From Haloferax volcanii DS2 (GTDB lineage: Archaea; Halobacteriota; Halobacteria; Halobacteriales; Haloferacaceae): a stretch of 32,000 nt of DNA. Each line of letters opens with the position of its first letter. Positions within the stretch are counted from its first letter, which is position 1. Location of the stretch: the NCBI RefSeq assembly GCF_000025685.1, contig NC_013967.1, positions 1,050,001 to 1,082,000 on the forward strand. The letters run 5' to 3'. The notes beneath the pieces were generated by a model. That model had not been told where the DNA came from, made no database searches, and worked only from the letters and a program-made list of their open reading frames with translations. The translations under genes were made by a program, and so were the position numbers. Shown in pieces: positions 1-19,910 of the stretch.

Positions 1-838
1 GAGGACGCGAAGGCGGGTGAGATACGGCTTCAGAAGCATCGGAAGAACTGGGTACTGCACGTCACCGTCGAGTACCCGGTCGAAGAACCAGCGACGGGGT
101 GACGCCACGCACATCGGCTTAGACATCGGAGAAACCGCCCTCATCACGGGCTGTGCCCTCAAGGATGGTTCTCCGACTGATCCGTTCGTGTGTAGCGGAA
201 GCAGAGCGAAGCATCTCCGCAAAGAGATGCACACGACCCTGAAACGACTCCAAGAGCGTGACGCATCCGAGTGGCGGATTGAAGACCGATTCAGCCACTA
301 CCAGAACGCGCTCACCGACATCGTGGAGAAAGTGTCTCGGCAAGCCGTCGAGTACGCCCAACAGTTCGAGAACCCGGTGTTGGTGATGGAGGACTTAACG
401 TACATCCGTGAACGGCTTTACGGGAAGTACATGAACCGTCGCCTTCACTCGTGGGCGTTCGCCCGACTCCAAGGGCGCATCGAGGACAAGGCGACGGAAG
501 CAGGCATTCCGGTCGAGTACGTGAATCCGGCGTACACCTCGCAGACGTGCCACTCGTGCCACCGTATCGGTCGGCGGGACTCACAAGCCGAGTTCCGGTG
601 TCCGAACGACGACTGCCACGTTTCGACGTTTCAGGCCGACATCAACGCTTCCGCTAATATCGCACGACGGGTTGACCCGTGGGGAGAGAGCGTCCCGCTT
701 GACAAGGCGGAACGCGATGACTCGCCACGGGATGGGAGCAGTTGTGACACCGCCACGACTCACCGTGAGACGAGCGTACCAGCGCAGATGACGCTCACGG
801 CCTACGAAGAGTCGAAACCCTCTGCCAGCGACTACTGA
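1..838 (+). pseudogene. tnpB: IS200/IS605-family (IS1341-type) TnpB/OrfB RNA-guided endonuclease gene, 5' end outside the window and frameshifted
   Basis: Frame 1 (nt 1-99) reads EDAKAGEIRLQKHRKNWVLHVTVEYPVEEPATG and then hits TGA at 100-102. Frame 2 continues GDATHIGLDIGE... to the stop at 836-838. The RuvC-like motifs are present: IGLDIGE, VLVMEDL and FQADINASANIARR. So is the zinc finger CHSCH...CPNDDCH. One extra G in the run at 96-99 accounts for the frame change. Confidence 0.8.
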
Positions 839-963: not shown

Positions 964-2475
964 ATGAGCGGTCGCCCCCGGGTTCCACTGGTCTATCGCG
1001 TCGTCAGAGACCGGACGGCGCAGACCTCGCCGATTGCCGTGGTGCTTCTGTTAGCGATTACGGTCGCCGGGACGACTGCCGTCGTCGCGCTCGGCGGCCC
1101 CGCCCTCGACGAGACGAAACAGGCGTCCCAACTGACGCGCGCCGAGCACTCGATGACGCTGTTCGACTCGCGAGTCGCCATCTCCGCGCTCGGCGAGGGC
1201 GAAACGCAGTACGTCGACCTCAGCGGCACCGGCGGCGGCGCCTACGTCGTCGACGACGACAGCGGCTGGCTGAGCATCACGCACAAGAATCACACCGACG
1301 ACGGCGACGACCAACCGCTTTACAACGAGTCGCTCGGGAGCGTCGAGTACCGCAACGGCGACGCCCGCATCGCCTACGAGGGCGGCGGCGTCTGGCGCAC
1401 GCAGGACGGCGGCACGACGATGGTCTCGCCGCCGGAGTTCCACTACCGCGGGGCGACGCTGACGCTCCCGGTCGTCCGTGTCTCCGGCGACGGGTCGTCG
1501 TCAGGAGACGTGTCGGCGCGGGTCGCGGCGACCAAACGTGCCCGGAGCATCTATCCGAACGAGACGGCGGCGTACAACGAGACAGCGGGCAGTTACGACA
1601 ACCCGGTCAGCAACGGCACAATCGTCGTGACGGTCCACAGCGACCACTACCGAGGGTGGGCGGCGTTCTTCGAGTCGCGGAGCGAGGGGACCGTGACGGT
1701 CGACGACGCCAACCAAACCGCGAGCGTGGAGCTGGAGACCCTCGGCCTCGTCGGCGAGTTCCAGATGCCGAACGAGGGCACCTCGGTCGACGTGCGCGGA
1801 ATGGCCGGGAATCACAACGTCTCGGCGTTCACGCTCACGCTCTCGAACGACCAACACCTCCAGAACATGGAGTGGGGGATGTACTACGACGGCGACCAGC
1901 GCGACCTCGAACTCCACGTGCAGGCGGACGACAAGTGCAAGGGCGGTAGCTACGACGGCACGTTCGACCTGACGCTCTACTACGCCACCGAAGACGGCAA
2001 GTACCACGGCTGGCAGGCGACCGACCTCGACCCGGACACGAGCGACGCGGTGAGCATCGACTGCTCTGCGAGCAACCCCGAACTCAGCGTCGACTTCACC
2101 AGTTCGGAGACGATGACCTACGGTGACATTCAGTCGGACAAGGGCTTCGGTAACCAGAACAAGTGGCAGTTCGCCCCCGAAATCACGGACGGCGAGGCCT
2201 ACGACAGCGTCACCTTCGACGAGCACGCCGCCGACAGCGGCCAGACGTTCTCGAAAGCCGACGGCGACACCGCCCCGATGGCGTTCGTCGTCAACCACTA
2301 CTTCTCGCTCGCCGCCCCGCAGTTCGAACTGACCGTCACTGACGGGCCGGGCAACAGCCAGAGCGTCGACGAGTCCGGCTCGCGCGGCGAACTCGACTAC
2401 GACCAGGCCGAGGGCGGCCAGTTCATCACCTTCCTGCACGTCACGGAAAACGAGGTCGAAGTCGACGTCGAGTGA
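964..2475 (+). CDS. Large (503 aa) type IV pilin-like protein with archaeal class III signal peptide
   Basis: The N-terminus MSGRPRVPLVYRVVRDRTAQTSPIAVVLLLAITVAGTTAVVAL has a charged region, an R-x-A-Q motif and about 20 hydrophobic residues. The body is acidic and Thr/Asp-rich with at least 7 N-x-S/T sequons. It lies convergent to the pilus-like operon. Confidence 0.75.
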   Translation: MSGRPRVPLVYRVVRDRTAQTSPIAVVLLLAITVAGTTAVVALGGPALDETKQASQLTRAEHSMTLFDSRVAISALGEGETQYVDLSGTGGGAYVVDDDSGWLSITHKNHTDDGDDQPLYNESLGSVEYRNGDARIAYEGGGVWRTQDGGTTMVSPPEFHYRGATLTLPVVRVSGDGSSSGDVSARVAATKRARSIYPNETAAYNETAGSYDNPVSNGTIVVTVHSDHYRGWAAFFESRSEGTVTVDDANQTASVELETLGLVGEFQMPNEGTSVDVRGMAGNHNVSAFTLTLSNDQHLQNMEWGMYYDGDQRDLELHVQADDKCKGGSYDGTFDLTLYYATEDGKYHGWQATDLDPDTSDAVSIDCSASNPELSVDFTSSETMTYGDIQSDKGFGNQNKWQFAPEITDGEAYDSVTFDEHAADSGQTFSKADGDTAPMAFVVNHYFSLAAPQFELTVTDGPGNSQSVDESGSRGELDYDQAEGGQFITFLHVTENEVEVDVE

Positions 2476-2528
2476 GCGGGTCCGCCCGCCCACCCGACGG
2501 TCGCGGTCCGAGTCGGGTCCGGTTCGAC

Positions 2529-3299
2529 TCAGTCGGCGAACGTCATGTCGACCGACGTCGAGACGACGTGAACGCGGGCCGTCCCGTTCACGTAACACGA
2601 GACGCTCGGGTACGCGTCCGGCGGCTCAACCACATCGTCGCAGGTCACGTCGGGGCGGCTCGATAGCTCTCGTTCCCAGAGCGCCGCGCGCGGGGAGCGA
2701 ACGGTCAGGTTCACGTCGTACGAGCCCTCGGTCCGCGCGGCCAACACGTCGCTCATAGCCTTGTCGGCGCGGATGAGGAACGTTCCCGACCCGCCGACGG
2801 CGGTCGTCGCCTCCTCGTCGGGCCGCGTCACGAACGCCGGAATCAACACCCGCTCGTCGGTGAGCACAAGCGAGGGCCGCCGGACGAACGTCCCGGTGTC
2901 GCCGCGAGTCCGGAAGAGCGCGTCGAACGCGTAGACGACTCGCTCGTCGCTGGAATCGCTCTCGTAGACGATTGGCGACACCTCGTAGGTGTTGGTGAAG
3001 TTGACCGACGGGTCTCCCGTCCGCTCGCCGGAGACGACGAACTCGACGGGGCGGTCGAGCGTCAGGCTGGCGTCCTGAAGTTTCACCTCGGTCGCCCGAC
3101 TCGGCGCGCCGCGGTCGGCGATGTCCTCCATGTTGTCCCCGAGGATGTCGAGGGCGCGTTCGGCGTTGTTGACGCGCTCGACGTCGCGGGCGTCTTGGAG
3201 GCCGGTCATCCCGACGGCGGTGACGAGGCCGACCATCGAGAGGACGATGGCGAAGACGAAGACGAACCCGAGCGTGTCGCTCACGGCGCGATTGCTCAC
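2529..3299 (-). CDS. Pilin-like protein (256 aa), last gene of the pilus-like operon
   Basis: GTG start at 3299 overlaps the upstream stop as GTGA. The N-terminus MSNRAVSDTLGFVFVFAIVLSMVGLVTAVG matches the archaeal pilin N-terminal pattern (R-A-V-S followed by a hydrophobic helix). Confidence 0.75.
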   Translation of the reverse strand: MSNRAVSDTLGFVFVFAIVLSMVGLVTAVGMTGLQDARDVERVNNAERALDILGDNMEDIADRGAPSRATEVKLQDASLTLDRPVEFVVSGERTGDPSVNFTNTYEVSPIVYESDSSDERVVYAFDALFRTRGDTGTFVRRPSLVLTDERVLIPAFVTRPDEEATTAVGGSGTFLIRADKAMSDVLAARTEGSYDVNLTVRSPRAALWERELSSRPDVTCDDVVEPPDAYPSVSCYVNGTARVHVVSTSVDMTFAD

Positions 3300-3805
3300 G
3301 ACGCCACCTCCACGCCCGACGATGGGTCGTAGGTGATGGTCACGTCGCCGCCGTCGACCCGGCTCGCGGCCAGCGAGGTCTCCGTCTCCACGGAAACGCG
3401 GACTGTCACCTCGGGGTCGGTCGAGGTAAGTACGAGTTCGTTCGACGCCGGCAGCACCTCGATGGTGTATGTCGTGCCGGCGACTCGCGGCGGCAGCCGA
3501 ACCCTCGCCTCGACCCGCGACTCGCCGGGGGCGGCCCCGATTCGGTCGACCGATTCGATGCCGGCCGCGAGCCGGTTGCCGACGACGTCGAGTTCCGTCT
3601 CCGTGACTCGCTCGCGTTCGTCGGAGACGAACCCGCCGGCGGCGACCATCAACCCCGAGATGAGGACGACCGTGATGGTGAGCGTGAGGACGTAGCCGAG
3701 CGCCGTCGAGACGCCGCGGTCGGTCGAGCGGGGCCGAGCGCGGCTCACGCGCCTCTCGCGCCGAGCGCGGTCAGCCCGGTCGCCCGGAAGCGTCGGCGGC
3801 GTCAC
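3296..3805 (-). CDS. Pilin-like protein (169 aa)
   Basis: GTG start at 3805 overlaps the upstream stop as GTGA. After an Arg-rich leader comes DRGVSTALGYVLTLTITVVLISGLMVAAG, a class III signal-like motif plus hydrophobic helix. Confidence 0.7.
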   Translation of the reverse strand: MTPPTLPGDRADRARRERRVSRARPRSTDRGVSTALGYVLTLTITVVLISGLMVAAGGFVSDERERVTETELDVVGNRLAAGIESVDRIGAAPGESRVEARVRLPPRVAGTTYTIEVLPASNELVLTSTDPEVTVRVSVETETSLAASRVDGGDVTITYDPSSGVEVAS

Positions 3806-4797
3806 GCAATCTCACCCGGCGCGACCCGAAGCTCTCGGGAGACGTACATCTCGCCCGACTCGTAGACGTACGAGACGGTGACGGCGTACAGCGCCTCCTG
3901 TGCGACCGGCGACGACCCGCTTCCCGCGGGTTCGTACTTCGTCGCGTCGAAGACCGTGGCGTTCGTCTCGTTCACGTACAGTTCGTAGGACCCCTCGGCC
4001 TCCGACGCATTCCGATACGAGACCGTGACCGAGCCGTCGAGGTCGGTGTGGACCGCGTCGAGCGGGTCGCAGGCGGTCCCGTTGAGTCGGCCGTCGGCGA
4101 CGTCAATCGTGACGTAGTCACCCGCGTCGGCCGCGACGCTACAAGTCGTCTCCACGCCACCGGCGTCCTCGACGGCCACGAAGACCCGAGACGAGTCCCG
4201 GTAGACCGCGGTTTCGACCGCGTTCGTCTCGTCGTCGACGACGAGGTGGAACGACGACGCGTTCGACGTCGAAAGCGAGTCGCGCGAGACGTTGAACCGG
4301 ACGCCGCGAACGCCGACGTCGCTCGCGAGCGTCCAGTCGGCCGTCTCGTTCCCGTCCGTGAAGTTCCGCGCCGCGTCGGGCTGGGAGATTCGCGTGCCTC
4401 GGACGTGGCTGACACGCTCGGCGTCCGTCGCGGCCCCCCTGACCGCGGCGAGCGTCGCGGCCGCGTCGCTCCAGTTGCCGAACGCTTCGTCGAACGAACC
4501 GGCGAGTTCGCCGTACGTGCCGCCCTCGCGGTTGACCTCGTCGAGGAGCGTCCCCGCTCCCGCCTCGACTGCGCCGCCGTGATTCACCGCGCCGTCGAGG
4601 TTCGTGTCGGTCGTGCGCGTGGCGAGGTTTTCGGTGTAAATCGCGGTGTTGAGCGTCAGCGCGAGGCCGACGAGGAGCACCGCGATTGCGAGCGCGGCGA
4701 CGAGCATCAGCTGGCCGCGGTCGTCGCCGCCGAGACGTGGGGAGTCGTCAGCCGCGTCGCTCGCGCGCTCGAACGCGTCGTCGGTCACATCCGCCAT
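3802..4797 (-). CDS. Pilin-like protein (331 aa), heavily sequon-decorated
   Basis: ATG at 4797 overlaps the upstream gene by 13 nt. DDRGQLMLVAALAIAVLLVGLALTL is an archaellin/pilin-type R-G-Q motif plus hydrophobic helix. There are 9 N-x-S/T sequons: NWS, NFT, NET, NVS, NAS, NGT, NAS, NET, NAT. Confidence 0.75.
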   Translation of the reverse strand: MADVTDDAFERASDAADDSPRLGGDDRGQLMLVAALAIAVLLVGLALTLNTAIYTENLATRTTDTNLDGAVNHGGAVEAGAGTLLDEVNREGGTYGELAGSFDEAFGNWSDAAATLAAVRGAATDAERVSHVRGTRISQPDAARNFTDGNETADWTLASDVGVRGVRFNVSRDSLSTSNASSFHLVVDDETNAVETAVYRDSSRVFVAVEDAGGVETTCSVAADAGDYVTIDVADGRLNGTACDPLDAVHTDLDGSVTVSYRNASEAEGSYELYVNETNATVFDATKYEPAGSGSSPVAQEALYAVTVSYVYESGEMYVSRELRVAPGEIA

Positions 4798-5417
4798 ACG
4801 ACCACCTCCACGTCGACGACGGCGTAGAGCGGTCCCGCGCTCCCGTCCTGTATGAAGTACGTCTCGTCGGTCTCGGCGGCGACCGATTCGAGCGTCGTCG
4901 TCGTCTCGACCGCGCGGGGGTCGCCGCCCGGCGACGTGCCCGGTTCGGTCAGCGCGTCGTCGTCAGTGAGCGTCACGAGTCGGGTCCGCGAGACGGCGTG
5001 GTCGCTCGGCTCGCCCATGTACACGAGGCGAGTCGTCCGCCTGACCTCCCGGTCGCGCAGGTAGTGCAGGTAGACGTTGAACGCGATGCCGCGGTCCAAG
5101 AAGGACTCGTCGAGCATCTCCCCGAAGGCGGTCGGCGGGCCGCCGTCGACGTAGTAGCCGCGCGCGTCGATATCGTAGAAGCTCCCGTTTTCGGGGTGCG
5201 TGAACAGCACCGTTCGCTTCAGCGCGCCGGTCTCGGCGGCCGCCGTCAGGACGCCGTCGGCGACGGCGGCCTGCTGGTTTTCGATGTGTTGGCTCGACGT
5301 GCTCGCGGTCAGGGGCGTCACCGCGGTCACTTGCAGCGCGAACGTGACGCTGGCGAGAAGCACCATCGCGGCGACGATGGCTTCGAGCGCGTGGGCCTGT
5401 GCGCGGGACACGGTCAC
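4785..5417 (-). CDS. Pilin-like protein (about 210 aa); internal GTG start chosen
   Basis: The ORF-track entry 4785..5804 has an Arg/Pro-rich N-terminal 128 aa that overlaps the upstream gene and looks non-coding. GTG at 5417 forms a GTGA overlap with the upstream stop and yields VTVSRAQAHALEAIVAAMVLLASVTFALQV, an R-A-Q motif plus hydrophobic helix. Confidence 0.65.
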   Translation of the reverse strand: MTVSRAQAHALEAIVAAMVLLASVTFALQVTAVTPLTASTSSQHIENQQAAVADGVLTAAAETGALKRTVLFTHPENGSFYDIDARGYYVDGGPPTAFGEMLDESFLDRGIAFNVYLHYLRDREVRRTTRLVYMGEPSDHAVSRTRLVTLTDDDALTEPGTSPGGDPRAVETTTTLESVAAETDETYFIQDGSAGPLYAVVDVEVVVWRM

Positions 5418-5914
5418 CACACCCTCACCGATAGCTCGTGGAGGTCGCCGTCGAGGAGAACGGCCCGCCGGGCGGTGACGACGCTCCGGGTGGTCGGGAC
5501 CGGCTCGCCGGTCGTCTCGACGACGCTTCTGTTCTGTGAGAGCGTGACGTTGAGCCCGTAGGACGCGCCGATGCCGGTCGCGGTGTTGGGGTCGGCGCTG
5601 CCGTAGTCGCAGTCGCCGGGGGGCTCGTCGGGCGAGTCCCCGTCGAAGAACGCCTCGGTACAGACCGGGTCGAGCACGTCGGGGTTCTCGTCGTCGACGA
5701 GCAGGCGCTGGGTGAGCGAGTCGGCGGCGCGGTTGGCGACAAGCGGGCGGTCCTGTTCGGCCTCGAAGGGGTCGAGAATCTGCGGGATGGTGCCGACGAC
5801 CCACGCGACCGCGAGGAGGAAGATGCCGACGCCGACGGCGAAGTCGATGGTCGTCTGGGCGCGGGCGCTCCGACCGCTCGTCTCGCGGGCGTCGTCGCCG
5901 CCGCGTCGCCGCAT
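5414..5914 (-). CDS. Pilin-like protein (166 aa); internal ATG start chosen
   Basis: ATG at 5914 overlaps the TGA (5916-5914) of the upstream membrane-protein gene by 1 nt. The N-terminus MRRRGGDDARETSGRSARAQTTIDFAVGVGIFLLAVAWVVG has an A-R-A-Q motif plus hydrophobic helix. The longer track ORF (to 6694) is an off-frame overlap of the upstream gene. Confidence 0.7.
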   Translation of the reverse strand: MRRRGGDDARETSGRSARAQTTIDFAVGVGIFLLAVAWVVGTIPQILDPFEAEQDRPLVANRAADSLTQRLLVDDENPDVLDPVCTEAFFDGDSPDEPPGDCDYGSADPNTATGIGASYGLNVTLSQNRSVVETTGEPVPTTRSVVTARRAVLLDGDLHELSVRVW

Positions 5915-7956
5915 CAGCCGACCACCATCCACACCGCGAGCGACAGCGTCTGGAGGATGACGACGAACTTGACCCCCGACTGGAGGTCCGCGTTGCGGAT
6001 GTAGCCGCTGATGAACCCGGACAGCATCGCCTGGATGGTGACGCCGTGGAAGAACAGAAGCGACAGCAGGTCGGGGTCGATGCCGCCTCCGAAGCTCGGG
6101 CCGCCGGTCGTCGCGCCGCCGGAACTCGACGCCTGCGACGAGAGCCCGGCCATCACGTCGAGGAACTGCGTCTTTAGGATGGCCATCACCGCGAGCAGCG
6201 TCACGTACGTCATGAGGATGATGGCGACCTGCATCCGGGTCCGCGAGATGCGCTCGCGCTCGATGTCGTCTTGGTTCTCGGAGGCTTGGGCGGCGGTCGT
6301 CAGCACCTCGGTAATCTGGCTCGACGCCTCCTGTGCCTTCGTGATGAGTTTGACCGTCCGGGCGAGCCGCGGGATGTGGTATTTGTTGTTGAACTCGACG
6401 AGCGCCTCCTTGAGGCTCATCCCGTAGTGGACCTTCGCGTGCATCACCTCGAACTCGTCGGCGAGTTTCCCAGAGGAGGTGTCGGAGACGGTCTTGATGG
6501 ATTCGAGGAGCGTCTGGCCGGTGTCGTTCGCGCTCGACAGCTTGCGGAGGTTGTCGGAGAGCTTTCCGGTGATGGCCGCCCGCGAGTGGACGTTCCACTC
6601 GTGGAAGGCGGTCAGCGGCACCGCGACGAGGTAGACCGGGACGTAAAACCAGATGAACGTCCCCCAGACGGGGTTGGCAATCATCCCGTCCCACGTCGTC
6701 GGGGCGGCCCCGCCGGCGACGGAGACGCCGAGGAGCGCGAGCGCCGCCGGGACCGTCAACGCGAGGGTGAAAAGCGGATGCCGCTTGAAAAACAGGTGCG
6801 GGCGGCGCAGGAGCTCTCTCGTCTTGAACGTCCCCTCGCGGGACTTGATGCGCGAAAAGAGGCTGAACTCGCCGACGTAGCTCTCGACGAGCCCCATGTG
6901 GACGAGGCCCTCGCGCTGTTGGCCTTGCAGGCGGTCGCTCTCGTCGTCGGGGCTGAGAAAGCCGTCGCCGATTTCGTCCTGTTTAACCGTCGAGACGAGG
7001 ACGAGAAAGCCGACGCCGGTCAGCGGGATGAGCCCGTAGACGGTCGCGTACAGCAGCCTCGACTGAGCCTCACCGAGCATGCTCATGATGACGAGGATGA
7101 TGATGAGAAGCAGCGGAAACAGCGACAGCGTCATGTACATCTCGCCGAACAGCTCCATCGTCTCCAGCGTCTGTTCCTGCTGTTGTTTCGCGGTTCGGAG
7201 GTGCTTGTCCTTCTTGTCGTCGAGGAAGCCCTGCATGTCGCCGCCGGAGTTGACGATAGAGAGCATGTCCGTCAGGAACTGCGAGAGCTCGTCCGAGGGG
7301 GTCAAAAGCGCCTGCTGGCGGATGGCGTTGCGGTAGTCGGTCCCGAAGTACTCCGTCTCCTGGACGATGCTCTGGAACTCCCGAGAGACCTCGCCGTAGG
7401 TGTCTTCGGCGCGGGCCATCGCCTCCAGAATCTCCAGTTGGTTCAGCCCGCCCACCGAGAGGGCGTACATGAACGAGACGGCGTCCGACAGGAGCATGTT
7501 TATCTCGCGTTTGCGGGCGGACGCCGTCGAGTACGGGATGGCGACGAGGGTCCCGAACCCGCCGGCGAAGCCGAGCGACCCGAAGACGAGCCCCGAGACG
7601 ACGACCGCCGCGGGCATCGCGAGCGACCGAAGCGTGTCCGCCGTGGCCTCGCTCCCGACCGGAATCCCGAGGCTCACCGAGTCCGCCGAGACGAGCCCGA
7701 GCGCGAAGACGCCGTAACCGACGAGCATCCCGACGAGCCACGACACGAGCCCGACGAGCACGCCGACCGCGAGCGCTCGCGAGAGGTAGAGTTCGACGGT
7801 GTCGGGCATCCGGGCCTGCTGGAGTTTCGTTTCGATGTCGGAGACGAACTCCCCGTCCTCGTCGAAGAGGAGCTGAAACAGCGGGTAGAACGCGTCGCCG
7901 AGGGTGTCGGTACTGCGGTCGAGTCCGCCCGAGGTCCTCGAGTCGAGATTGCTCAT
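5914..7956 (-). CDS. Polytopic membrane platform protein of the TadC/FlaJ/PilC (type II secretion system F) type, 680 aa
   Basis: Multiple long hydrophobic segments alternate with two soluble helical regions, as in FlaJ/TadC proteins. The ATG at 7956 directly abuts the TAG (7957-7959) of the ATPase gene. Confidence 0.8.
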   Translation of the reverse strand: MSNLDSRTSGGLDRSTDTLGDAFYPLFQLLFDEDGEFVSDIETKLQQARMPDTVELYLSRALAVGVLVGLVSWLVGMLVGYGVFALGLVSADSVSLGIPVGSEATADTLRSLAMPAAVVVSGLVFGSLGFAGGFGTLVAIPYSTASARKREINMLLSDAVSFMYALSVGGLNQLEILEAMARAEDTYGEVSREFQSIVQETEYFGTDYRNAIRQQALLTPSDELSQFLTDMLSIVNSGGDMQGFLDDKKDKHLRTAKQQQEQTLETMELFGEMYMTLSLFPLLLIIILVIMSMLGEAQSRLLYATVYGLIPLTGVGFLVLVSTVKQDEIGDGFLSPDDESDRLQGQQREGLVHMGLVESYVGEFSLFSRIKSREGTFKTRELLRRPHLFFKRHPLFTLALTVPAALALLGVSVAGGAAPTTWDGMIANPVWGTFIWFYVPVYLVAVPLTAFHEWNVHSRAAITGKLSDNLRKLSSANDTGQTLLESIKTVSDTSSGKLADEFEVMHAKVHYGMSLKEALVEFNNKYHIPRLARTVKLITKAQEASSQITEVLTTAAQASENQDDIERERISRTRMQVAIILMTYVTLLAVMAILKTQFLDVMAGLSSQASSSGGATTGGPSFGGGIDPDLLSLLFFHGVTIQAMLSGFISGYIRNADLQSGVKFVVILQTLSLAVWMVVG

Positions 7957-10900
7957 CTACGCTCCCTCGCCGGAGTCGGAGCCGCGCTCGCCCGCGTCGT
8001 CCGGGGGGTCGTCGGCATCGACCGCCTCGAATCCGCCCCACGTCTCGTCTTCGTGGCCGCCCTCGTCGTTTCGGCCCGGTTCGTCGTCCTGGTCCGCGGT
8101 CGACCCCGACTCCGACCCCGGTTCCGCTCCCGACTCCGATCCCCCCTCGATACCGAACGCGCCGAAGAAGTCGTCGAGGTCTGCGCCGTCGTTGGGGTCG
8201 GAAAACGAGACGCCGTCGTCGTTGAACCCGAACGGGCCGTCGTCGTCTCCGAAACCGCCCGGTTCGTCGTCGGCGTCGGTGTCGTCAGAGGCGGTGTCGT
8301 CGGTGTCGCCCTCGTCGGCGTCGCGTCCCGCGTCCAGCGCCGGCGTCTCGCTCTCGCCGTCGAGCGACGAGGGGCCGCGGTCGCCGTCGATTTCGGGCGT
8401 GTCGTCGCCCGCGTCCAGTTCGGCTCGGTCGCGCCCCTCGTCGAGTTCTGGGTCGCCGCTCGACGCGTCGAGCGAGTCGAGTTCGTCCCGCTCGCCGGGG
8501 GTCGCCTCCACGTCCGGGGCGTCGCGCATGTGGTTGAGCGCCTCCGCGACCTCGCCCACGTCGCGGTCGCGGTAGTCGGGGAACAGTTCGTCTTCGGCCC
8601 GGCGGAGGATATCCTTCGCCAACTGCCGGACGTGTTCGGGCGGGTCGGGCCGGGGGACCATCGCCTCGCTGTCGGGGTCGATGTTGATGTGGACCGATTC
8701 CATCTCCCGGAGGTCTTCGAGGCTGCGTTCGAGGTCGTCGGTCGCCATCAGCCCGAGGATGGTGTCCTGGTCGTTGATGAACGCCTGAAACGTCGCTGCG
8801 ACCTGCGTGTAGGTGTTGAGCCCGCGGTCGATGAGGTACGCGAGGGTGACCTGTCGCTTGAATATCTCCAGTTCGACCGTCTCCTGATTCCAGCCGCGGT
8901 CGAACTTTATCTCTTCGAGCGTGTTCGACGAGCCCATCTGGAGGAACTCGTCGGTCTCGGCCTGCCACTGGTAGACGTCTTGGACGTTAATCTCGTCGTT
9001 TTCGGGGTCGTAGTGGTTGATTTCGGTGAGCGATTTGTTCCGGCGCACCTTGTTGCCGCCGACCCGCGTCGAGGTCTGGATGGACACGAGGTCGAGGGCG
9101 GTGAACATCGTCTTCGAGACGTTGATGGGCGCGGTCGTAAACCGCTTGAGCACCTCCCCGACCGAGTCCGCGTGGAACGTCGTGTACGTGGTGTGACCCG
9201 TGGACATGACCTGAAACAGCGTCCGCCCCTCCTCGCCGCGAATCTCGCCCATGACGATGTAGTCGGGGCGCTGGCGGAGGGCGGCTTCGAGCAGGTCGAA
9301 CTCGTCCACGTCGCCTTTGTCGTCGTCCGCGAACGACGGCCGGGTGACGGAGGCAATCCAGTTTCGCTGGGGCAGTTCGACCTCGCGGGTGTCCTCGATG
9401 GAGACGATTTTCGTGTTCGACGGGATGAAAAGCGAGACCGCGTTGAGCGAGGTGGTCTTCCCCGATGCCGTGCCGCCGGCGAAGATGAGACTCTTGTCGT
9501 TTTCGATGCAGAGCCAGAGGAACGCCATCCCCTCCAGCGAGAACGTCGACCAGTTGATGAGGTCGATTGGCGTGAAGGGAACGTCCTTGAACTGGCGGAT
9601 GGTGTAGTTCGTCCCGTGGTCCGACACCTCGCGGCCGAGCGTGAGCTGTGCGCGTGACCCGTCGGGGAGCGTCGCGTCCACCTGCGGGCGTCGCTTCGAG
9701 ATGCCTTTCCCGGAGCGCTGGGCGAGTTTCACGACGAAGTCGTCGAGTTCGCCTTCGCCGTGGTAGATGTTCGAGATAATCTGCTCGTAGTCGGAGTGGT
9801 AGACGAACACCGGCGAGTTGTAGCCGTCGCAGGAGATGTCCTCGACGTTGATGTCGTGTTTGATGCCGTCGATGCGCTCGTAGCCGATGAAGTCGCGGCG
9901 GAGGTAGTACTGGAGCTTCCGCACCTGGTAGTCGTTCAGGACGTCGGCGTCGTCGGCGAGGACCGCGGACTCGGGTCGGGCCGCGATGCCGTCGATGCCG
10001 CCGAGCGGTTCGTCCTCGTCGGCGGTTCGTGCGCGACCGCCGAAGACTGAGTTCAGCCCCAACCGAGAACCGAGACCGACGAACCGCCCGGAGGTCGCGG
10101 CGGTCGTCGAACCGTCGGCCGACGAGCCGTTGCCGCCGTCGAAGAGACCGCCCAGCCCGAGCCGGGACGCGAGGCCCGACGACTCCGCCGCGCCGTCAGC
10201 GTCAGCGGCCGCGTCGGCGGTCGAACCGTCGTCTCCGGCCGCCGCGGACGCCGACGCCGGCGGGTCGTAGAGGTCGTACCGCGAGAGCAGTTCGTAGGTC
10301 TCGGCCTCGATGACCCGCCCGCGGTTGTCGCGGCCGCCCTCGACGACGCTGTCGTCGCCGTACTTGATGGCGGTCCGAAGCTTGTTGGTGAGGAACTCCG
10401 TCAGGTCGTCTTCGATGCGGTTCAGGTGCGGTTCGACGACGTAGTACTTCTTTTCGTTCTCCTTGACGGAGTGGAAGATGATGACGAACGCGTAGGGTTT
10501 GTTCACCCAGTACCGTTCGACCTCGCGGAAGTGCGTCTTCTTCTCCATCGGGACGGCCTTTTCGAGGTCGTAGCGGTTCGCCAGCGTGGTCGTGCCGTCG
10601 ACGCTGGAGAAAAACGCGTCCTCGTCGAACTCGGGGTCGACGTCGACCGTTCGCTCGTCGACGACAGCGGCCAGTTCCTCGGCGCGCTGGCCGGCCCGCG
10701 CGACCGCGTTCTCGATGTGGTCGGGGTCGAAGCCCAGCGCCGCCTCGCCGTCGAAGGGGACGATTTCGCTCGCCGAATCCCGCGGCCGAGCGCCGTCGTC
10801 CTCGTAGTAGTACTCGCGTTTGTAGTGTTCCCACAGCCAGACGCCCTTGACGACGGGCGTCGTCTCGGGGTCGCAGAAGGCTTCGAACTGCTCATTGAGG

Positions 10901-11259
10901 TTCTTCGCGTGCGCGCCGCGGTCGCCCACGAACGCCGCCACGTCGACCGGGTGACAGTCGAGATACTCCTCGGGGTCGAGGCCGACGCGGTCCCAGTCGG
11001 CCCGGGTCGGCGTCGACGCCGACCCGTCGTCGTCTTCCCACCGGGACGTACCGGGCGCGTCGCGTTGCGTCCGCGGGTCGCTCCCGTAGAGGGATTCGAC
11101 ATCGCCGTCGCTCCCGTACTCGTCGAGAAAGTCGGCCCACGTGTACGACCCGACGCGCGCGTTCGACGCCTGCTTCGGAGCGGCGTCACTCTCCGCCGGC
11201 GACGTCACATCGCCGGATAACGCCTGTTGGTCTCCTCCGTCGGCGTCGTCGGTTGCCAT
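7957..11259 (-). CDS. Giant (1100 aa) PilB/FlaI/VirB11-type secretion ATPase with N-terminal extension, internal low-complexity insert and acidic C-terminal tail
   Basis: Walker A GGTASGKTT is encoded at 9451-9477, and Walker B / Asp-box at RQRPDYIVMGEIRGEEG. The archaeal FlaI-like N-domain motifs EVERYWVNKPYAFVIIF...KKYYVVEPHL and YYLRRDFIGYERIDGIKHDINVEDISCDG are present. ATG at 11259 (MATDDADGG) is preferred to the TTG at 11301 used by the ORF track. Confidence 0.85.
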   Translation of the reverse strand: MATDDADGGDQQALSGDVTSPAESDAAPKQASNARVGSYTWADFLDEYGSDGDVESLYGSDPRTQRDAPGTSRWEDDDGSASTPTRADWDRVGLDPEEYLDCHPVDVAAFVGDRGAHAKNLNEQFEAFCDPETTPVVKGVWLWEHYKREYYYEDDGARPRDSASEIVPFDGEAALGFDPDHIENAVARAGQRAEELAAVVDERTVDVDPEFDEDAFFSSVDGTTTLANRYDLEKAVPMEKKTHFREVERYWVNKPYAFVIIFHSVKENEKKYYVVEPHLNRIEDDLTEFLTNKLRTAIKYGDDSVVEGGRDNRGRVIEAETYELLSRYDLYDPPASASAAAGDDGSTADAAADADGAAESSGLASRLGLGGLFDGGNGSSADGSTTAATSGRFVGLGSRLGLNSVFGGRARTADEDEPLGGIDGIAARPESAVLADDADVLNDYQVRKLQYYLRRDFIGYERIDGIKHDINVEDISCDGYNSPVFVYHSDYEQIISNIYHGEGELDDFVVKLAQRSGKGISKRRPQVDATLPDGSRAQLTLGREVSDHGTNYTIRQFKDVPFTPIDLINWSTFSLEGMAFLWLCIENDKSLIFAGGTASGKTTSLNAVSLFIPSNTKIVSIEDTREVELPQRNWIASVTRPSFADDDKGDVDEFDLLEAALRQRPDYIVMGEIRGEEGRTLFQVMSTGHTTYTTFHADSVGEVLKRFTTAPINVSKTMFTALDLVSIQTSTRVGGNKVRRNKSLTEINHYDPENDEINVQDVYQWQAETDEFLQMGSSNTLEEIKFDRGWNQETVELEIFKRQVTLAYLIDRGLNTYTQVAATFQAFINDQDTILGLMATDDLERSLEDLREMESVHINIDPDSEAMVPRPDPPEHVRQLAKDILRRAEDELFPDYRDRDVGEVAEALNHMRDAPDVEATPGERDELDSLDASSGDPELDEGRDRAELDAGDDTPEIDGDRGPSSLDGESETPALDAGRDADEGDTDDTASDDTDADDEPGGFGDDDGPFGFNDDGVSFSDPNDGADLDDFFGAFGIEGGSESGAEPGSESGSTADQDDEPGRNDEGGHEDETWGGFEAVDADDPPDDAGERGSDSGEGA

Positions 11260-11280
11260 TGTCACCGGGTATTCGGGCCG

Positions 11281-11360
11281 ATGGAAAAGTCTTTTTCCCA
11301 ATTAACTCACAATTTAAGTTCTATTTAAGTTCTATTTTTATACTCATTTATCTATAGTCG
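11281..11360 (-). promoter_or_regulatory. AT-rich promoter region of the pilus-like operon
   Basis: 20 G+C in 80 nt (25 %) within an otherwise GC-rich window, immediately upstream of the ATPase start. On the minus strand it carries several TATA-like stretches (TATAAAAATA, TTAATTGG). Confidence 0.55.
11312..11338. repeat. 11-bp tandem repeat atttaagttct x2 plus a partial third copy
   Basis: Exact copies at 11312-11322 and 11323-11333, followed by atttt at 11334-11338. Confidence 0.9.
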
Positions 11361-11492
11361 GTCTCGACTCCCCGGCCGAGCGCACCGTTAAAGTAGGGAT
11401 TTATCTCCAGCAGGGTCGGCGTATGGCGTGAGTCCCGCGAGCGAAGCGAGTGGAACGCAGGAACGCCCGCTGAACGAACGCAGTGAGAGAAG

Positions 11493-11565
11493 CGGGCGTG
11501 ACGGGATTCGAACCCGCGATCGAGAGGTTAGGAACCTCTCGCCCTGTCCACTAGGCCACACGCCC
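11493..11565 (-). tRNA. tRNA-Arg (anticodon CCT), no encoded CCA, no intron
   Basis: The reverse complement GGGCGTG-TG-GCCT-AGTGGACA-GGGC-G-AGAGG-TTCCTAA-CCTCT-CGATC-GCGGG-TTCGAAT-CCCGT-CACGCCC folds as a cloverleaf. It has a 7-bp acceptor stem, a T-loop TTCGAAT and an anticodon loop TT-CCT-AA. The discriminator base is at 11493. Confidence 0.9.
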
Positions 11566-11643: not shown

Positions 11644-11919
11644 TCAGTTCGACGATTCCGTCGAAACCGAGTCGGTCGAAACCGAGTCGGCGGAACTCTC
11701 GCTGGTCGCGTCGTCTTCGTCGTCGTCGCCCGTCATGTCCTGCAGTTCGTCTTCGATCTCTTCGCGGCCGCGCTGGAACTCGCCGATGGCCTGCCCGGAG
11801 GACCGAGCGAGCTTCGGAATCTTGTTCGCGCCGAACAGCAAGACGACGATGAGCAGCACGACGAGCAGCTCGGGCCCGCCCGGGAGTCCCGGGAACAGTG
11901 GGGTGATGGTCTCGAACAT
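11644..11919 (-). CDS. tatA: Twin-arginine translocase subunit TatA/E family protein (91 aa)
   Basis: MFETITPLFPGLPGGPELLVVLLIVVLLFGANKIPKLARSSGQAIGEFQRG is the canonical TatA TM helix, hinge (FG) and amphipathic helix, followed by an acidic tail. A TATA-like ctataatt on the minus strand (11943-11950) sits about 25-30 nt upstream of the ATG. Confidence 0.9.
   Translation of the reverse strand: MFETITPLFPGLPGGPELLVVLLIVVLLFGANKIPKLARSSGQAIGEFQRGREEIEDELQDMTGDDDEDDATSESSADSVSTDSVSTESSN
11661..11690. repeat. Perfect 15-bp tandem duplication inside the tatA 3' end
   Basis: tcgaaaccgagtcgg occurs at 11661-11675 and again at 11676-11690. It encodes the doubled DSVST in the TatA tail. Confidence 0.9.
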
Positions 11920-14920: not shown

Positions 14921-15196
14921 TCAGTAGGGATAGCGCTTCGTCGCCCCGCAGTCGCACCTGACGACGACGTGGCCGCCGGCGCGGGTCCGGACGCGGGCGT
15001 TGACGCCGGGGCGGAGGTAGGCGTCGCAGTCGTCGCAGGAGAACCGGCGGAACGCTCTGGGGAGGCCGCAGCGGTTCCGCTCCGCGACGCGACGGGCGAG
15101 GCGGACATACTCCCGGGCGCGGTCGTGGTCGCGGTCGCTCGCCGCCTCGCGGGCGAGGGCGTGGAGTCGGTCGATGCGCTCCTCCGCGATGTTCAT
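14921..15196 (-). CDS. rnp4: RNase P protein component 4 (Rpp21/Rpr2 family)
   Basis: MNIAEERIDRLHALAREAA...YVRLARRVAERNR...FSCDDCDAYLRPGVNARVR...VVVRCDCG shows the N-terminal helical pair plus a C4 zinc ribbon typical of Rpp21. The ATG at 15196 is preferred to the track start at 15223. Confidence 0.8.
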   Translation of the reverse strand: MNIAEERIDRLHALAREAASDRDHDRAREYVRLARRVAERNRCGLPRAFRRFSCDDCDAYLRPGVNARVRTRAGGHVVVRCDCGATKRYPY

Positions 15197-15305
15197 ACAC
15201 GTTCGGGCGAGCGGCCCGGACAAAGACGTTCCGAACCGCGACGCGGGACCGACACCGAGGAACCGAAGCCGATACTGTGATACCCCGGCCGGAAAAACGG
15301 CGACT

Positions 15306-16367
15306 GTGCGCGTCCTGAACTACCTCGAGTTCGCCTCGCAACTCGACCGTAGCGGCATCGGCACCGCCACCGACCAGCAGCGGGCGGCCCTCGCCACGAC
15401 CGATGTGGAGGTCGTCACCTCCCCGTGGCCCGAGTCGGTCGCCGCGGGTGCCGCGGGCCTCCTGCGGGGCGACGGGGTCGTCCGCGACTACGACGTGGCC
15501 CACTGCAACCTCATCGGTCCCGGCTCGCTCGCCGTGGCCAGACAGGCCAAGCGCAACGACATCCCGCTCGTCCTCCACTCGCACGTCACCCGCGAGGACT
15601 TCGCCGAGAGCTTCCGCGGGTCGACCGCGGTCGCCCCCGCCCTCGGGAAGTACCTCAAGTGGTTCTACTCGCAGGCCGACGTGGTGCTCTGTCCCTCCGA
15701 GTACACGAAGCGAACCCTCGAATCCTACCCGGTCGACGCGCCGATTCGACCGGTTTCGAACGGCGTCGACACCGACGCGCTCGACGGGTTCGAAGACCGC
15801 CGCGAGGAGTACCGAACCGAGTACGACCTCGACGGGATGACCGTGTTCACCGTCGGCAACGTCTTCGAGCGCAAGGGGCTCACGACGTTCTGCACGCTCG
15901 CACAAGAGACCGACTACGACTTCGCGTGGTTCGGCCCCTACGACACCGGCCCGCACGCCTCGAAGACGGTGCGGTACTGGGTCGAAAACGCCCCCGAGAA
16001 CGTCACGTTCACCGGCTGGATAGACGACATCCGCGGCGCGTTCGGCGCGGGCGACGTCTACCTGTTCGCGACGAAAAACGAGAATCAGGGCATCGCGGTC
16101 CTCGAAGCGATGGCCTGCGGGAAGGCGGTCGTCATCCGCGACATCCCGGTGTTCGAGGAGTTCTATACCCACGGCCACGACTGCCTGAAGTGTTCGACCG
16201 ACGCGGAGTTCCGCCGGGCGCTCGATCTCCTCGCCCGCGACCCCGACCTCCGGCGACGGCTCGGCGAGAACGCCCGCGAGACCGCCGCCAAACACAGCCT
16301 CGACCGCGTCGGCGACAGGCTCGTCGAGACGTACGAGGACGCGCTGGCCGGGCGACTCGAAGGCTGA
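15306..16367 (+). CDS. Glycosyltransferase, family 4 (GT-B, group 1)
   Basis: The GTG start at 15306 gives VRVLNYLEFASQLDRSGIGT. The C-terminal half has ...FTGWIDD...LFATKNENQGIAVLEAMACGKAVVIRDIPVFEEF, the EX7E-type GT4 motif. The first 44 codons of the track ORF overlap rnp4 and its promoter and look non-coding. Confidence 0.8.
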   Translation: MRVLNYLEFASQLDRSGIGTATDQQRAALATTDVEVVTSPWPESVAAGAAGLLRGDGVVRDYDVAHCNLIGPGSLAVARQAKRNDIPLVLHSHVTREDFAESFRGSTAVAPALGKYLKWFYSQADVVLCPSEYTKRTLESYPVDAPIRPVSNGVDTDALDGFEDRREEYRTEYDLDGMTVFTVGNVFERKGLTTFCTLAQETDYDFAWFGPYDTGPHASKTVRYWVENAPENVTFTGWIDDIRGAFGAGDVYLFATKNENQGIAVLEAMACGKAVVIRDIPVFEEFYTHGHDCLKCSTDAEFRRALDLLARDPDLRRRLGENARETAAKHSLDRVGDRLVETYEDALAGRLEG

Positions 16368-16466
16368 CCGGCGAGATACTCGACCATCTGGAAGCTGGCA
16401 CGCTAACACACGACAGTCCAGCGGGAAGTCACAACGGTTTATCCCGTCGGGGTCGCACGAACGGCC

Positions 16467-17573
16467 ATGCAGTCGGTCGCCGCGTTCACCGACACGTACC
16501 TACCGACCGTCAACGGCGTCACCTACACGATTCAGACGTGGCGCGAGCGGTGGCACCGCCGCGGCGGCCGCATGGACGTGGTGTTCCCGGCGGACGACGA
16601 CTACGACCCCGAGCCCGGCGAGTACGGCGTCCGAAGCCTTCCGTTCCCGTTCTACGAGGGGATTCGAATCGGCGCGCCGCGCATTCCGGGAGCCGTCGAC
16701 GACGTCGACGTCGTCCACGCCCACACTCCGTTCGGCCTCGGACTGGCCGGACTCCGACTCGCTCGCCGGCACGACATCCCGCTCGTGGCGACCTACCACA
16801 CCCCGACCGGCGAGTACGCCGAGTACCTCAGCTCCGTCGGCGCTATCGAGCGCGGCGTCGAGCGCACCGCCGAGCGGTACGAGCGGTGGTTCTTCGACCG
16901 CGCCGACGCGGTCATCGTCCCGAGCGAGGACGCAGAGCGCCGCCTCGTCGACGAGGTCGGCGTCGAGGCCGAAATCGTCGTCCTCTCGAACGGCATCGAC
17001 GTGGAGCGGTTCGAACCCGTCGAGGGCGACGACTTCCGCCGCCGCTACGACCTCGGCAACGGCCCCCTCATCGGCTACACGGGCCGTCACGGCTACGAGA
17101 AGCGTCTCGACGAACTCGTCCGGGCCGCGGCCGACCTCGACGCGACGCTCGTCTTCGGCGGCGACGGCCCCGCCCGCGACGAGCTGTCAGCCCTCGCCGA
17201 CGACCTCGGCGTGGACGCTCGTTTCCTCGGCTTTCTCGACCGCGAGGAACTGCCGGCGTTCTACTCCGCGCTCGACGTGTTCTGTTTTCCGAGCCCCGTC
17301 GAGACGCAGGGGCTCGTCGCGCTGGAGGCCAACGCCTGCGGGACGCCTGTCGTCGGCGTCAACGAGGGCGCACTTGAGAACACCGTCCTCGACGGCGTGA
17401 CCGGCTACCACTACGAGTCCGGCGATTTAGACGGGTTCCGGCGCGGAATCCGGCGGGCGCTGGCGGAGCGCGAGGAGCTCAGCGCGCGGTGTCTCGACCG
17501 CCGTGACGAGGTGAGCGTCGACCGGTCTGTCGACCGACTCGCCGCGCTCTACGACCGGTTGGCATCGGAATAA
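16467..17573 (+). CDS. Glycosyltransferase, family 4 (GT-B, group 1)
   Basis: FTDTYLPTVNGVTYTI... N-terminus and FCFPSPVETQGLVALEANACGTPVVGVNEGALENTV C-terminal GT4 motif. A TATA-like tttat at 16437-16441 lies about 26 nt before the ATG. Confidence 0.85.
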   Translation: MQSVAAFTDTYLPTVNGVTYTIQTWRERWHRRGGRMDVVFPADDDYDPEPGEYGVRSLPFPFYEGIRIGAPRIPGAVDDVDVVHAHTPFGLGLAGLRLARRHDIPLVATYHTPTGEYAEYLSSVGAIERGVERTAERYERWFFDRADAVIVPSEDAERRLVDEVGVEAEIVVLSNGIDVERFEPVEGDDFRRRYDLGNGPLIGYTGRHGYEKRLDELVRAAADLDATLVFGGDGPARDELSALADDLGVDARFLGFLDREELPAFYSALDVFCFPSPVETQGLVALEANACGTPVVGVNEGALENTVLDGVTGYHYESGDLDGFRRGIRRALAEREELSARCLDRRDEVSVDRSVDRLAALYDRLASE

Positions 17574-18962: not shown

Positions 18963-19910
18963 TTATTCGTATTCGGCGCGAAGCTCTGCTGCGAGTTCCT
19001 CGGCGGCGCGGCGGACGGCCTCGTCGCTCGACCCGTCGGGCTCCCAGCCGAGCGCGGAGAGCTTCTCGATGGAGAGGCGCATCTTCGGCACGTCGCCGGT
19101 CCAGCCGCGGTCGCCGCCGGTGTACTCGAACTCGGGGTCGAGGTCCAGCACGTCGGCGACGATGTTGGCGATGGTCGTCACGGAGGTGGTCGTCCGCGTG
19201 CCGAGGTTGTAGACGTTGTAGTCGCGGTCGGCGTGTTCGACGACGTGGCACATCGCGTCGATGCAGTCCTCGACGTGGAGGTAGGACTTCTCCTGGCGGC
19301 CGTCGCCGAGGATTTCGAGCGTCTCGGGGTCTTCGAGGAGCTTCTCGATGAAGTCCGGGATGACGTTGCCGCGCTGGTTCGGGCCGACGATGTTGGCGAA
19401 GCGGTACATGTAGACCGTGAAGTCGTAGGAGTGGGCGAACGTCGAAAGCAGGCCCTCGTCGGCGAGCTTGGAGGAGCCGTAGATGCTGATGGGTTCGAGG
19501 GGGGCGTAGTCCTCGGGTGTCGGTCGCGGGGCCTCGCCGTAGATGGTCGACGAGGAGGTGAAGGCGATATCCGACACGCCGACCTCCTGCATCCGTTCGA
19601 GGACGTTGTACGTCATCTCGGTGTTCTCCTCGAACAGCTGTCGGGGGTTGCCGTAGTTCGTGTCCGTGTAGGCCGCGAAGTGGAAGACGATATCGAGGTC
19701 CTCGGTGACGGCCTCGGCGACGTCGTCGGGGTCGGTCATGTCGGCCTGTACGAACTCGACGCCGTCGGGGACCTGCTCGCGGTCTCCCTTCGAGAGGTCG
19801 TCGGCGACGACCACGTAGTTGTCCTCGGAGAGGTGTGCGGCGAGGTGAGAGCCGACGAGTCCCGCGCCCCCGGTCACGAGGACGCGCTTGTCGGAGAGTT
19901 CCAGCGACAT
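18963..19910 (-). CDS. NAD-dependent epimerase/dehydratase (extended SDR, UDP-sugar 4-epimerase-like)
   Basis: The ATG at 19910 gives MSLELSDKRVLVTGGAGLVGSHLAAHL, a GxxGxxG Rossmann motif. The catalytic YxxxK is at SIYGSSKLADE. The track ORF's 117-aa N-terminal extension is Arg/Ser/Pro-rich, overlaps the trm56 start on the opposite strand, and was rejected. Confidence 0.85.
   Translation of the reverse strand: MSLELSDKRVLVTGGAGLVGSHLAAHLSEDNYVVVADDLSKGDREQVPDGVEFVQADMTDPDDVAEAVTEDLDIVFHFAAYTDTNYGNPRQLFEENTEMTYNVLERMQEVGVSDIAFTSSSTIYGEAPRPTPEDYAPLEPISIYGSSKLADEGLLSTFAHSYDFTVYMYRFANIVGPNQRGNVIPDFIEKLLEDPETLEILGDGRQEKSYLHVEDCIDAMCHVVEHADRDYNVYNLGTRTTTSVTTIANIVADVLDLDPEFEYTGGDRGWTGDVPKMRLSIEKLSALGWEPDGSSDEAVRRAAEELAAELRAEYE

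Follow-up and report, generated by a model that had tools for sequence, protein, structure and literature searches.

The window analysed here is a 32,000-nt stretch of the chromosome of Haloferax volcanii DS2 (RefSeq assembly GCF_000025685.1, contig NC_013967.1, positions 1,050,001 to 1,082,000 of the forward strand), and all positions below are counted from its first nucleotide unless a chromosome coordinate is named. Eight genes lie between positions 964 and 11259, and an exact-sequence look-up in public databases showed that all eight encoded proteins are identical to H. volcanii entries. Two locus tags were found among the exact matches, HVO_1156 for the protein of 331 amino acids (aa) and HVO_1157 for the 210-aa protein, and the tags HVO_1153 to HVO_1155 and HVO_1158 to HVO_1160 were assigned from the consecutive order. 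By sequence identity, the cluster is the pilB4-pilC4 operon of H. volcanii (HVO_1160 to HVO_1154) together with the convergent gene HVO_1153. In the databases PilB4 and PilC4 are named as the ATPase subunit and the membrane subunit of the "type IV pilus biogenesis complex", and other entries of the cluster read "secreted glycoprotein", "pilin/flagellin" or carry the family labels DUF7287, DUF7288, DUF7266 and DUF7289. The genes are listed below, with an arrow at the predicted cleavage site of each pilin-like protein.

7957-11259, minus strand: pilB4 (HVO_1160), 1100-aa PilB/GspE-type assembly ATPase
5914-7956, minus strand: pilC4 (HVO_1159), 680-aa polytopic platform protein of the PilC/TadC/ArlJ type
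5414-5914, minus strand: DUF7287 pilin-like protein (HVO_1158), 166 aa, motif SARA↓QTTIDF, Asp at +5
4785-5417, minus strand: DUF7288 pilin-like protein (HVO_1157), 210 aa, motif SRA↓QAHALEA, Glu at +6
3802-4797, minus strand: DUF7261-related pilin-like protein (HVO_1156), 331 aa (328 aa in the deposit), motif DDRG↓QLML
3296-3805, minus strand: DUF7266 pilin-like protein (HVO_1155), 169 or 150 aa, motif DRG↓VSTALGY
2529-3299, minus strand: DUF7289 pilin-like protein (HVO_1154), 256 aa, motif NRA↓VSDTLGF, final minus-strand gene of the operon
964-2475, plus strand: DUF7289+DUF7308 pilin-like protein (HVO_1153), 503 aa, convergent, motif DRTA↓QTSPIAVV

An earlier note on this DNA had described a translationally coupled operon of seven genes plus a convergent one, and the eight open reading frames (ORFs) were recovered at these coordinates, all of them free of internal stops. 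The junctions were recovered as well: TAG followed directly by ATG at 7956/7957, TGATG at 5914, GTGA at 5414-5417, a 13-nt overlap at 4785-4797, and GTGA at both 3802-3805 and 3296-3299. GC content across the window is 59-71% in 1-kb windows, and among the ORFs retained by the coding filter the GC content at third codon positions (GC3) lies between 0.89 and 0.92, as expected of genuine haloarchaeal genes. Because of this GC3, of the verbatim database proteins and of tight junctions that recur in orthologous loci, the operon goes beyond chance. Two gene starts are ambiguous. The DUF7266 protein is 169 aa long in RefSeq but only 150 aa long both as deposited for DS2 and according to independent gene calls, and with the 150-aa start the GTGA overlap at 3802-3805 is lost; HVO_1156 has 328 aa in the deposit instead of 331 aa, and the 328-aa start would replace the 13-nt overlap with a GTGA overlap. 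Both alternative starts retain the signal motif, and they change two of the junctions that had been read as coupled. Judged by the geometry of the junctions, the genes of the operon are probably translationally coupled.

The first two genes of the operon encode the motor. According to Pfam, PilB4 contains a T2SSE core at residues ~440-835 (4.6e-31), with weak matches to PilB3_N and PilB3_C. Its best PDB match is GspE of Archaeoglobus fulgidus (2oap, E 2.2e-109, residues 446-832), followed by FlaI (4ii7, 8.8e-68) and CpaF, and its Walker A and Walker B motifs are GGTASGKT and IVMGEIR, respectively. The core is preceded by an N-terminal extension of ~440 residues of halobacterial type, made of a PilB3_N-like segment and a Gly/Ala/Ser-rich linker, and followed by a highly acidic C-terminal tail of ~265 residues with up to 21 Asp+Glu per 50 residues. 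This agrees with the literature, in which HVO_1160 is the ATPase of the PilB4 locus and carries additional domains at both termini that are specific to halobacteria (PMC4858521). PilC4 shows two T2SSF stretches (Pfam, 2.3e-25) and about 10 hydrophobic segments, and its matches to the ArlJ, UpsF and BasF models are all sub-threshold.

The six remaining proteins were assigned mainly to haloarchaeal DUF families. Five families exceeded their Pfam gathering cut-offs, which range between 27 and 27.6 bits: DUF7287 (144.6 bits; 5e-42 in the 166-aa protein), DUF7288 (209.4 bits; 7.5e-62 in the 210-aa protein), DUF7266 (111.8 bits; 3e-32), DUF7289 (246 and 77.8 bits; 4.8e-73 in the 256-aa protein and 1.2e-21 in the 503-aa protein) and DUF7308 (197.9 bits; 2.5e-58 in the 503-aa protein). 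The 256-aa DUF7289 protein is the one labeled "secreted glycoprotein" in UniProt. For the 503-aa protein 644 relatives were found, and the two-domain DUF7289+DUF7308 architecture is present in all 120 that were listed. The 331-aa protein matched DUF7261 with 24.5 bits, below the 27-bit cut-off, over its N-terminal 46 residues only; its own family contains 949 cluster representatives at E<=1e-3 with full-length alignments, and 26 of 26 sampled relatives matched DUF7261 (best E 3.7e-10). On these comparisons the 331-aa protein is classified as a member of a DUF7261-related family, with a long head domain that lies outside the model. The archaeal model Pilin_N (PF07790) was matched by the DUF7266 protein alone among the six, with 20.6 bits against a cut-off of 25.2 bits, and a low-stringency Pfam scan, prompted by the QTTIDFAVG motif, detected no similarity to TadE, Flp or Class_IIIsignal. 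In profile-profile comparisons the pilin families aligned weakly with one another and in the N-terminal segment alone, and BLASTP detected no similarity between the two DUF7289 paralogues. With two precursors of only 166 and 169 aa, the description of all the pilins as unusually large was overstated.

All six proteins had been credited with an archaeal class III signal, that is, a charged stretch, the motif (R/K)-(A/G)-(Q/V) and a hydrophobic helix of about 20 residues. A charged stretch, R-(A/G)-(Q/V) and a single hydrophobic segment were found in each of them, except that the 503-aa protein reads R-T-A↓Q. With a FlaFind-like pattern, the site was picked out where expected in three of the six proteins. 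Across orthologous loci the predicted site R-(A/G)↓(Q/V) is almost invariant in five of the six families. DUF7287 has R at -2 in 69/70 loci, and A/G at -1 and Q at +1 in 70/70; DUF7288 has R at -2 and Q at +1 in 44/44 and A/G at -1 in 43/44; the family of the 331-aa protein has R at -2 in 68/74, and A/G at -1 and Q at +1 in 74/74. DUF7266 shows R at -2 and A/G at -1 in 76/76, with V (65) or Q (9) at +1, and DUF7289 shows R at -2 in 60/61, A/G at -1 in 61/61 and V at +1 in 58/61. The family of the 503-aa protein is looser at -2 (R 24, S 12 and T 10 of 50), in a column that may mix both DUF7289 paralogues. Furthermore, Asp at +5 of DUF7287 is conserved in 70/70 loci and Glu at +6 is invariant in DUF7288.

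N-glycosylation sequons are present in four of the six pilin-like proteins, with two to nine in each, nine of them in the 331-aa protein and seven in the 503-aa protein. One 647-aa relative of the 331-aa protein (P0477) shows three C-terminal Big_1/Invasin_D3 immunoglobulin-like domains above the Pfam thresholds, and other long relatives show weak FG-GAP matches, which suggests that this family carries modular adhesin extensions. In DUF7288, residues ~34-48, located right after the hydrophobic segment, form an invariant stretch (TPLTxSTSSQHIENQ, 68 sequences) that is by far the best conserved part of the protein and a candidate site of interaction or modification.

The tertiary structures of two of the proteins were modeled with AlphaFold from 68-sequence alignments. 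The DUF7288 model, with a predicted local distance difference test score (pLDDT) of 90.4, has a helix at residues 3-63 followed by an alpha/beta head, and the model of the 503-aa protein (pLDDT 86.7) has a helix at residues 22-76 followed by about 30 strands in beta-rich domains. Both predicted models thus show the "lollipop" shape of pilins, an N-terminal helix of ~55-60 residues plus a beta-rich head. Foldseek found no solved-structure match for either model, and three family profiles gave no match to PDB sequences.

These results agree with the type IV pilus-like machine proposed in the earlier note: a T2SSE and T2SSF motor, six pilin-like proteins with a conserved class III-type motif, and shared synteny. 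The hidden Markov model searches that it had suggested gave T2SSE and T2SSF above threshold and assigned the haloarchaeal DUF families, with Pilin_N reaching only a sub-threshold score in the DUF7266 protein. An ATPase, an adjoining platform protein and putative substrates with a predicted class III signal are all present, as expected of a machine of the Type IV filament (TFF) superfamily. Assignment to the archaellum was rejected, with 388.6 bits for the FlaI model against a 550-bit cut-off and 36.8-76.5 bits for the ArlJ models against 400-570 bits, and the Pfam scan revealed neither archaellin nor archaellum accessory-gene domains in the locus. Membership in the bindosome assembly system (Bas) was likewise rejected, with NCBIfam scores of 175.9 against 1000 bits for BasE and 34.7 against 1300 bits for BasF. 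The assignment of HVO_1160 as pilB2 was discarded, as PMC4858521 assigns it to PilB4, and so was orthology to pil-1 or pil-2 of Halobacterium salinarum, PilB4 being a separate clade 2 paralogue. According to the same study, H. salinarum pil-1 corresponds to PilB3, and clade 4C, which includes PilB1 and PilB2 of H. volcanii, is also represented by an H. salinarum locus (PMC4858521); we take this clade 4C locus to be pil-2. A prepilin peptidase gene was said to be missing, and none was found among the plausible ORFs across the 32-kb window, therefore the peptidase must act in trans. According to the literature, H. volcanii encodes the peptidase PibD elsewhere in the genome, and PibD processes other pilins of this species.

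Co-occurrence of the genes was studied in a survey anchored on DUF7288, relatives of which are encoded in 245 species genomes; 80 of these loci were fetched, from Haloferax, Halobellus, Halorubrum, Salinigranum, Halosimplex, Haloarcula, Natronomonas, Halomarina and other genera. The synteny that the earlier note had left to be checked is kept across these 80 Halobacteria loci, in the order pilB, pilC, DUF7287, DUF7288, 331-aa family, DUF7266, DUF7289 and DUF7289(+DUF7308). Each pilin family is present in 76-80 of the 80 loci (DUF7287 in 80/80), pilC in 70 and pilB in 62, contig ends cutting some of the loci. The small genes thus mostly stand beside those for the ATPase and the platform, and the lack of joint conservation that the earlier note had named as a ground for refutation is not seen. 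The orthologous junctions stay tight, with median projected gaps of 0, -1, -4, -40, -48 and -1.5 nt. In 76 of the 80 loci the operon is followed by a DUF7289-type gene, whose orientation is convergent or co-directional depending on the lineage. DUF7287, DUF7288, the 331-aa family and DUF7266 have a single copy per locus, and DUF7289 usually has two. In three Halosimplex species (loci L037, L040 and L048), pilC and the cassette are several kilobases apart.

According to the literature, the cassette also occurs outside Halobacteria. In four Archaeoglobus genomes, six pilin genes are ordered arCOG06117-04652-07777/06552-03926-02911-02911 (PMC4858521 supplement), and gene number, order and relative sizes agree with those of the haloarchaeal loci, with the correspondence of DUF families to arCOGs taken from gene position only. 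Since the same six-gene order is found in Archaeoglobus, the cassette probably predates Halobacteria. The arCOG03926 gene extends over 679723..682602 in A. fulgidus and 99386..101758 in A. veneficus, that is, 2.4-2.9 kb or ~790-960 aa as calculated from the coordinates, an odd size for a major pilin.

The layout of these genes was already published in 2016, and the locus is a re-discovery of a named system that is nothing unusual in a haloarchaeal genome. The "PilB4 locus" served Makarova, Koonin and Albers (2016) as the type example of the second of two sorts of euryarchaeal type IV pili in clade 2 (PMC4858521, Fig. 4B), and our locus is this same one, with no structural difference. Its pilin set comprises a predicted major pilin (arCOG03926), a duplicated minor pilin of 250-550 aa (arCOG02911) and three further families, and the pilins of such loci were proposed as filament components (PMC4858521). 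The PilB4-type locus corresponds to "system 2" of Sivabalasarma and Albers (2026). Orthology to an already characterised locus of known function had been named as a ground for refutation: the cluster is orthologous to no pil locus of characterised function, being a paralogue of the studied PilB3-C3 system, but it is itself already named and published. As to its expression, transcription of pilB4 and pilC4 has been observed in laboratory cultures, and PilB4-C4 was proposed to assemble large, co-regulated, FlaFind-positive pilins into a pilus-like structure of its own (PMC4371748). The PilB4 protein was detected in GMM-grown cells only (PMC7305310), and in H. gibbonsii PilB4-C4 expression exceeds that of PilB3-C3 and falls on HFTV1 infection (preprint). 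The paper supplements that were searched for proteomic or arCOG data on HVO_1153 to HVO_1160 contained none, and the DUF names of these families are not mentioned in the literature searched.

The sequences that flank the cluster were also analyzed. Upstream of pilB4 the following features were found.

11260-11491, minus strand: putative pilB4 promoter or 5' region, AT-rich, between tRNA-Arg and the pilB4 ATG
11492-11565, minus strand: tRNA-Arg (anticodon CCT), on the same strand, directly upstream of the pilB4 promoter region

The putative promoter region contains a perfect tandem repeat of an 11-nt unit, TAGAACTTAAA x2, at 11313-11334 on the minus strand, 54 nt upstream of the pilB4 ATG. This tandem repeat is unique in the window, where 0 matches are expected by chance, and it is surrounded by an AT-rich stretch (~11290-11365) in a GC-rich genome. 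Elsewhere in Haloferax, the 60-nt stretch richest in AT (~70-78% AT) begins, at most of the loci, ~95 nt upstream of the projected pilB start, and the 11-nt unit occurs only singly, in two species. The tandem repeat may be a promoter or a regulator site. Just upstream of tRNA-Arg lies a gene of the TatA/B/E family (91 aa, 11644-11919, minus strand) with no evident link to a pilus. Furthermore, two genes encoding GT4-family glycosyltransferases and one encoding a NAD-dependent sugar epimerase/dehydratase are found 4-9 kb from the operon, at 15174-17573 on the plus strand and 18963-20261 on the minus strand.

On the other side of the cluster, an IS200/IS605-type insertion sequence (IS) remnant at 17-838 (plus strand) contains a TnpB-like ORF with a Cas12f1-like TNB domain and ends ~125 nt (839-963) before the HVO_1153 ATG; at the same spot, other H. 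volcanii assemblies show a Y1 transposase and a TnpB split into ORFs of 172 and 203 aa. Because this remnant adjoins HVO_1153, the native upstream region of the gene is IS-derived sequence. Pfeiffer and Dyall-Smith list HVO_1153 as "function unassigned". Kiljunen et al. (2014, PMC4300041) reported a proline auxotroph with a transposon insertion that they place in HVO_1153, at chromosome position 1,051,586. This phenotype is hard to square with a pilin-like surface glycoprotein, and a secondary mutation or a polar or IS effect seems more likely.

Taken together, we consider it likely that the pilB4-pilC4 operon and HVO_1153 form a self-contained type IV filament machine, the multi-pilin variant of the euryarchaeal clade 2 or system 2. 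The six precursors would insert into the membrane, and PibD, the single prepilin peptidase of the genome, would trim their leaders at R-(A/G)↓(Q/V). ATP hydrolysis by PilB4, acting through PilC4, would then pull the subunits from the membrane and stack their N-terminal helices into a surface fibre. Because the families are single-copy, their order is fixed and their genes are tightly packed and probably coupled, most of the subunits would form an initiation or tip complex of low copy number and fixed stoichiometry. The two large glycoproteins, of 331 and 503 aa, are the best candidates for adhesive parts exposed at the surface and bear many sequons, and the repeating subunit would most likely be the small DUF7266 protein, an uncertain assignment that was already put forward in the literature. 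A role in condition-specific adhesion is probable, and the Big_1/Invasin_D3 domains that end one relative of the 331-aa protein are a hint of it.

This machine resembles the PilB3-PilC3/PilA1-6 system of the same organism, which has paralogous clade 2 ATPase and platform proteins as well as the PibD-processed pilins and the role in adhesion that are proposed here for PilB4-C4. However, the pilB3-C3 operon contains no pilin genes, and the PilA pilins are scattered in the genome and share a common conserved H-domain, whereas PilB4 is extended by long regions at both termini and six pilin-like genes are linked to it; visible pili are known for PilB3-C3 only. The in-operon pilin-like genes recall the bacterial sets GspH-I-J-K of type II secretion and FimU-PilV-W-X of type IVa pili, in which four to five different pilin-like proteins, unequal in size, single-copy and co-transcribed, are thought to cap and prime the fibre, and the acidic residue at +5 or +6 of DUF7287 and DUF7288 recalls the bacterial Glu5. 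No sequence or fold similarity to these bacterial proteins was detected, so the likeness is an analogy only.

Several observations weigh against this interpretation. DUF7266 is a doubtful repeating subunit because it is never tandemly duplicated and its positional counterpart arCOG03926 has ~790-960 aa in two Archaeoglobus species. The head domains have no solved-structure match, so that adhesion is unsupported by fold, and the 503-aa protein of H. volcanii has Thr at -2. About 10 loci have the pilin cassette without pilB or pilC within 10 kb upstream; such loci were found in Haloarcula (L056, L060, L062, L065, L067 and L079), Halosimplex marinum, Halorientalis salina and some Haloarculaceae metagenome-assembled genomes (L053, L039, L066 and L070), which fits the published proposal of modular evolution, with motor and pilin set evolving separately (PMC4858521). 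Furthermore, a pilB3-C3 deletion strain has no pili despite transcription of pilB4 and pilC4, and only two FlaFind-positive pilins were mentioned in that study (PMC4371748); any PilB4 fibre would therefore be short, rare or condition-dependent. A 2026 preprint attributes visible pili to pilBC3 alone and calls the role of the other loci unclear, and our literature search returned no knockout, filament or processing data for this locus.

Part of this evidence would be explained if the cassette had no major pilin of its own and served as a priming or tip complex for pilins encoded elsewhere (e.g., of the PilA type), or, in place of any long filament, as a short glycosylated pseudopilus; it would then be an archaeal functional equivalent of the bacterial minor-pilin and GspH-I-J-K complexes. 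We regard this as the main rival, possible but doubtful, and the earlier note had likewise thought of a tip, pseudopilus or secretion-like assembly. A capping or priming role would account for the unseen PilB4 pili of the pilB3-C3 deletion strain, for the Haloarcula cassettes without an adjoining ATPase and for an Archaeoglobus "major pilin" of ~800-960 aa, known from two species. The fixed composition points in the same direction, with four families in single copy and free of tandem expansion, DUF7289 usually present twice, and in-operon genes packed so tightly as to imply similar dosage. A precedent is the Epd system (clade 1 or system 1) of Methanococcus maripaludis, in which, according in part to a 2026 preprint, several pilin-like genes stand in an operon beside the motor, Q is found at +1, and the locus-encoded Epd pilins are minor ones needed for piliation; however, Epd has two platform genes, its own peptidase EppA and a headless major pilin encoded elsewhere. 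Against a cassette limited to minor pilins, Makarova et al. hold that the system has its own major pilin and that dependence on PilA is unlikely (PMC4858521), and the DUF7266 protein is small and the sole member with a PilA-type Pilin_N signal, although sub-threshold.

Two further explanations appear unlikely. The pilin-like proteins might be a short scaffold of a bindosome-like or secretion-type assembly that positions or releases surface proteins instead of mediating adhesion. The BasEF/BasABC system of Sulfolobus is similar in having an ATPase, a platform protein, few pilin-like proteins and no long visible filament; PilB4 and PilC4 show sub-threshold matches to BasE and BasF, visible PilB4 pili are unreported, and wide use of archaeal type IV machineries for the display of substrate-binding proteins has been proposed in a 2026 preprint. 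We nevertheless judge this idea improbable, considering that the Bas models score far below their cut-offs, that the ATPase is nearer to FlaI and GspE-type models and that the pilin families differ; moreover, sugar-binding proteins are not linked to the PilB4 locus, and the conserved cassette includes neither a substrate-binding protein gene nor an ABC transporter gene, with no co-varying cargo candidate. Slighter still is the chance that PilB4-C4 is a partly redundant back-up motor for the adhesion pilins PilA1-6, with the neighbouring pilin-like genes as accessories. Such a motor would agree with the residual adhesion of the pilB3-C3 deletion strain, which does not come from PilB1-C1, and with the ability of archaeal ATPase/TadC modules to swap pilin sets (PMC4858521), but PilA pili are missing in that strain even though pilB4 and pilC4 are transcribed, and the six-gene cassette is strictly co-inherited with the PilB4 type of motor in most genomes.

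What the present analysis adds to the published description of the PilB4 locus is the synteny survey of 80 loci, the cleavage-motif statistics, the Pfam DUF names of the families, two structure models and the doubt cast on the "major pilin" assignment. With a self-contained multi-pilin filament machine as the preferred reading, interest centres on the choice between a long pilus and a short tip or pseudopilus complex as the product of PilB4, and on the identity of the major subunit. H. volcanii is the best genetic model among haloarchaea, and the pilin cassette of this locus occurs in no fewer than 245 species genomes and, going by the literature, in Archaeoglobi too. Solving the role of PilB4 would show what the second widespread class of euryarchaeal type IV filament does, and also whether archaea use multi-subunit tip complexes as bacteria do.

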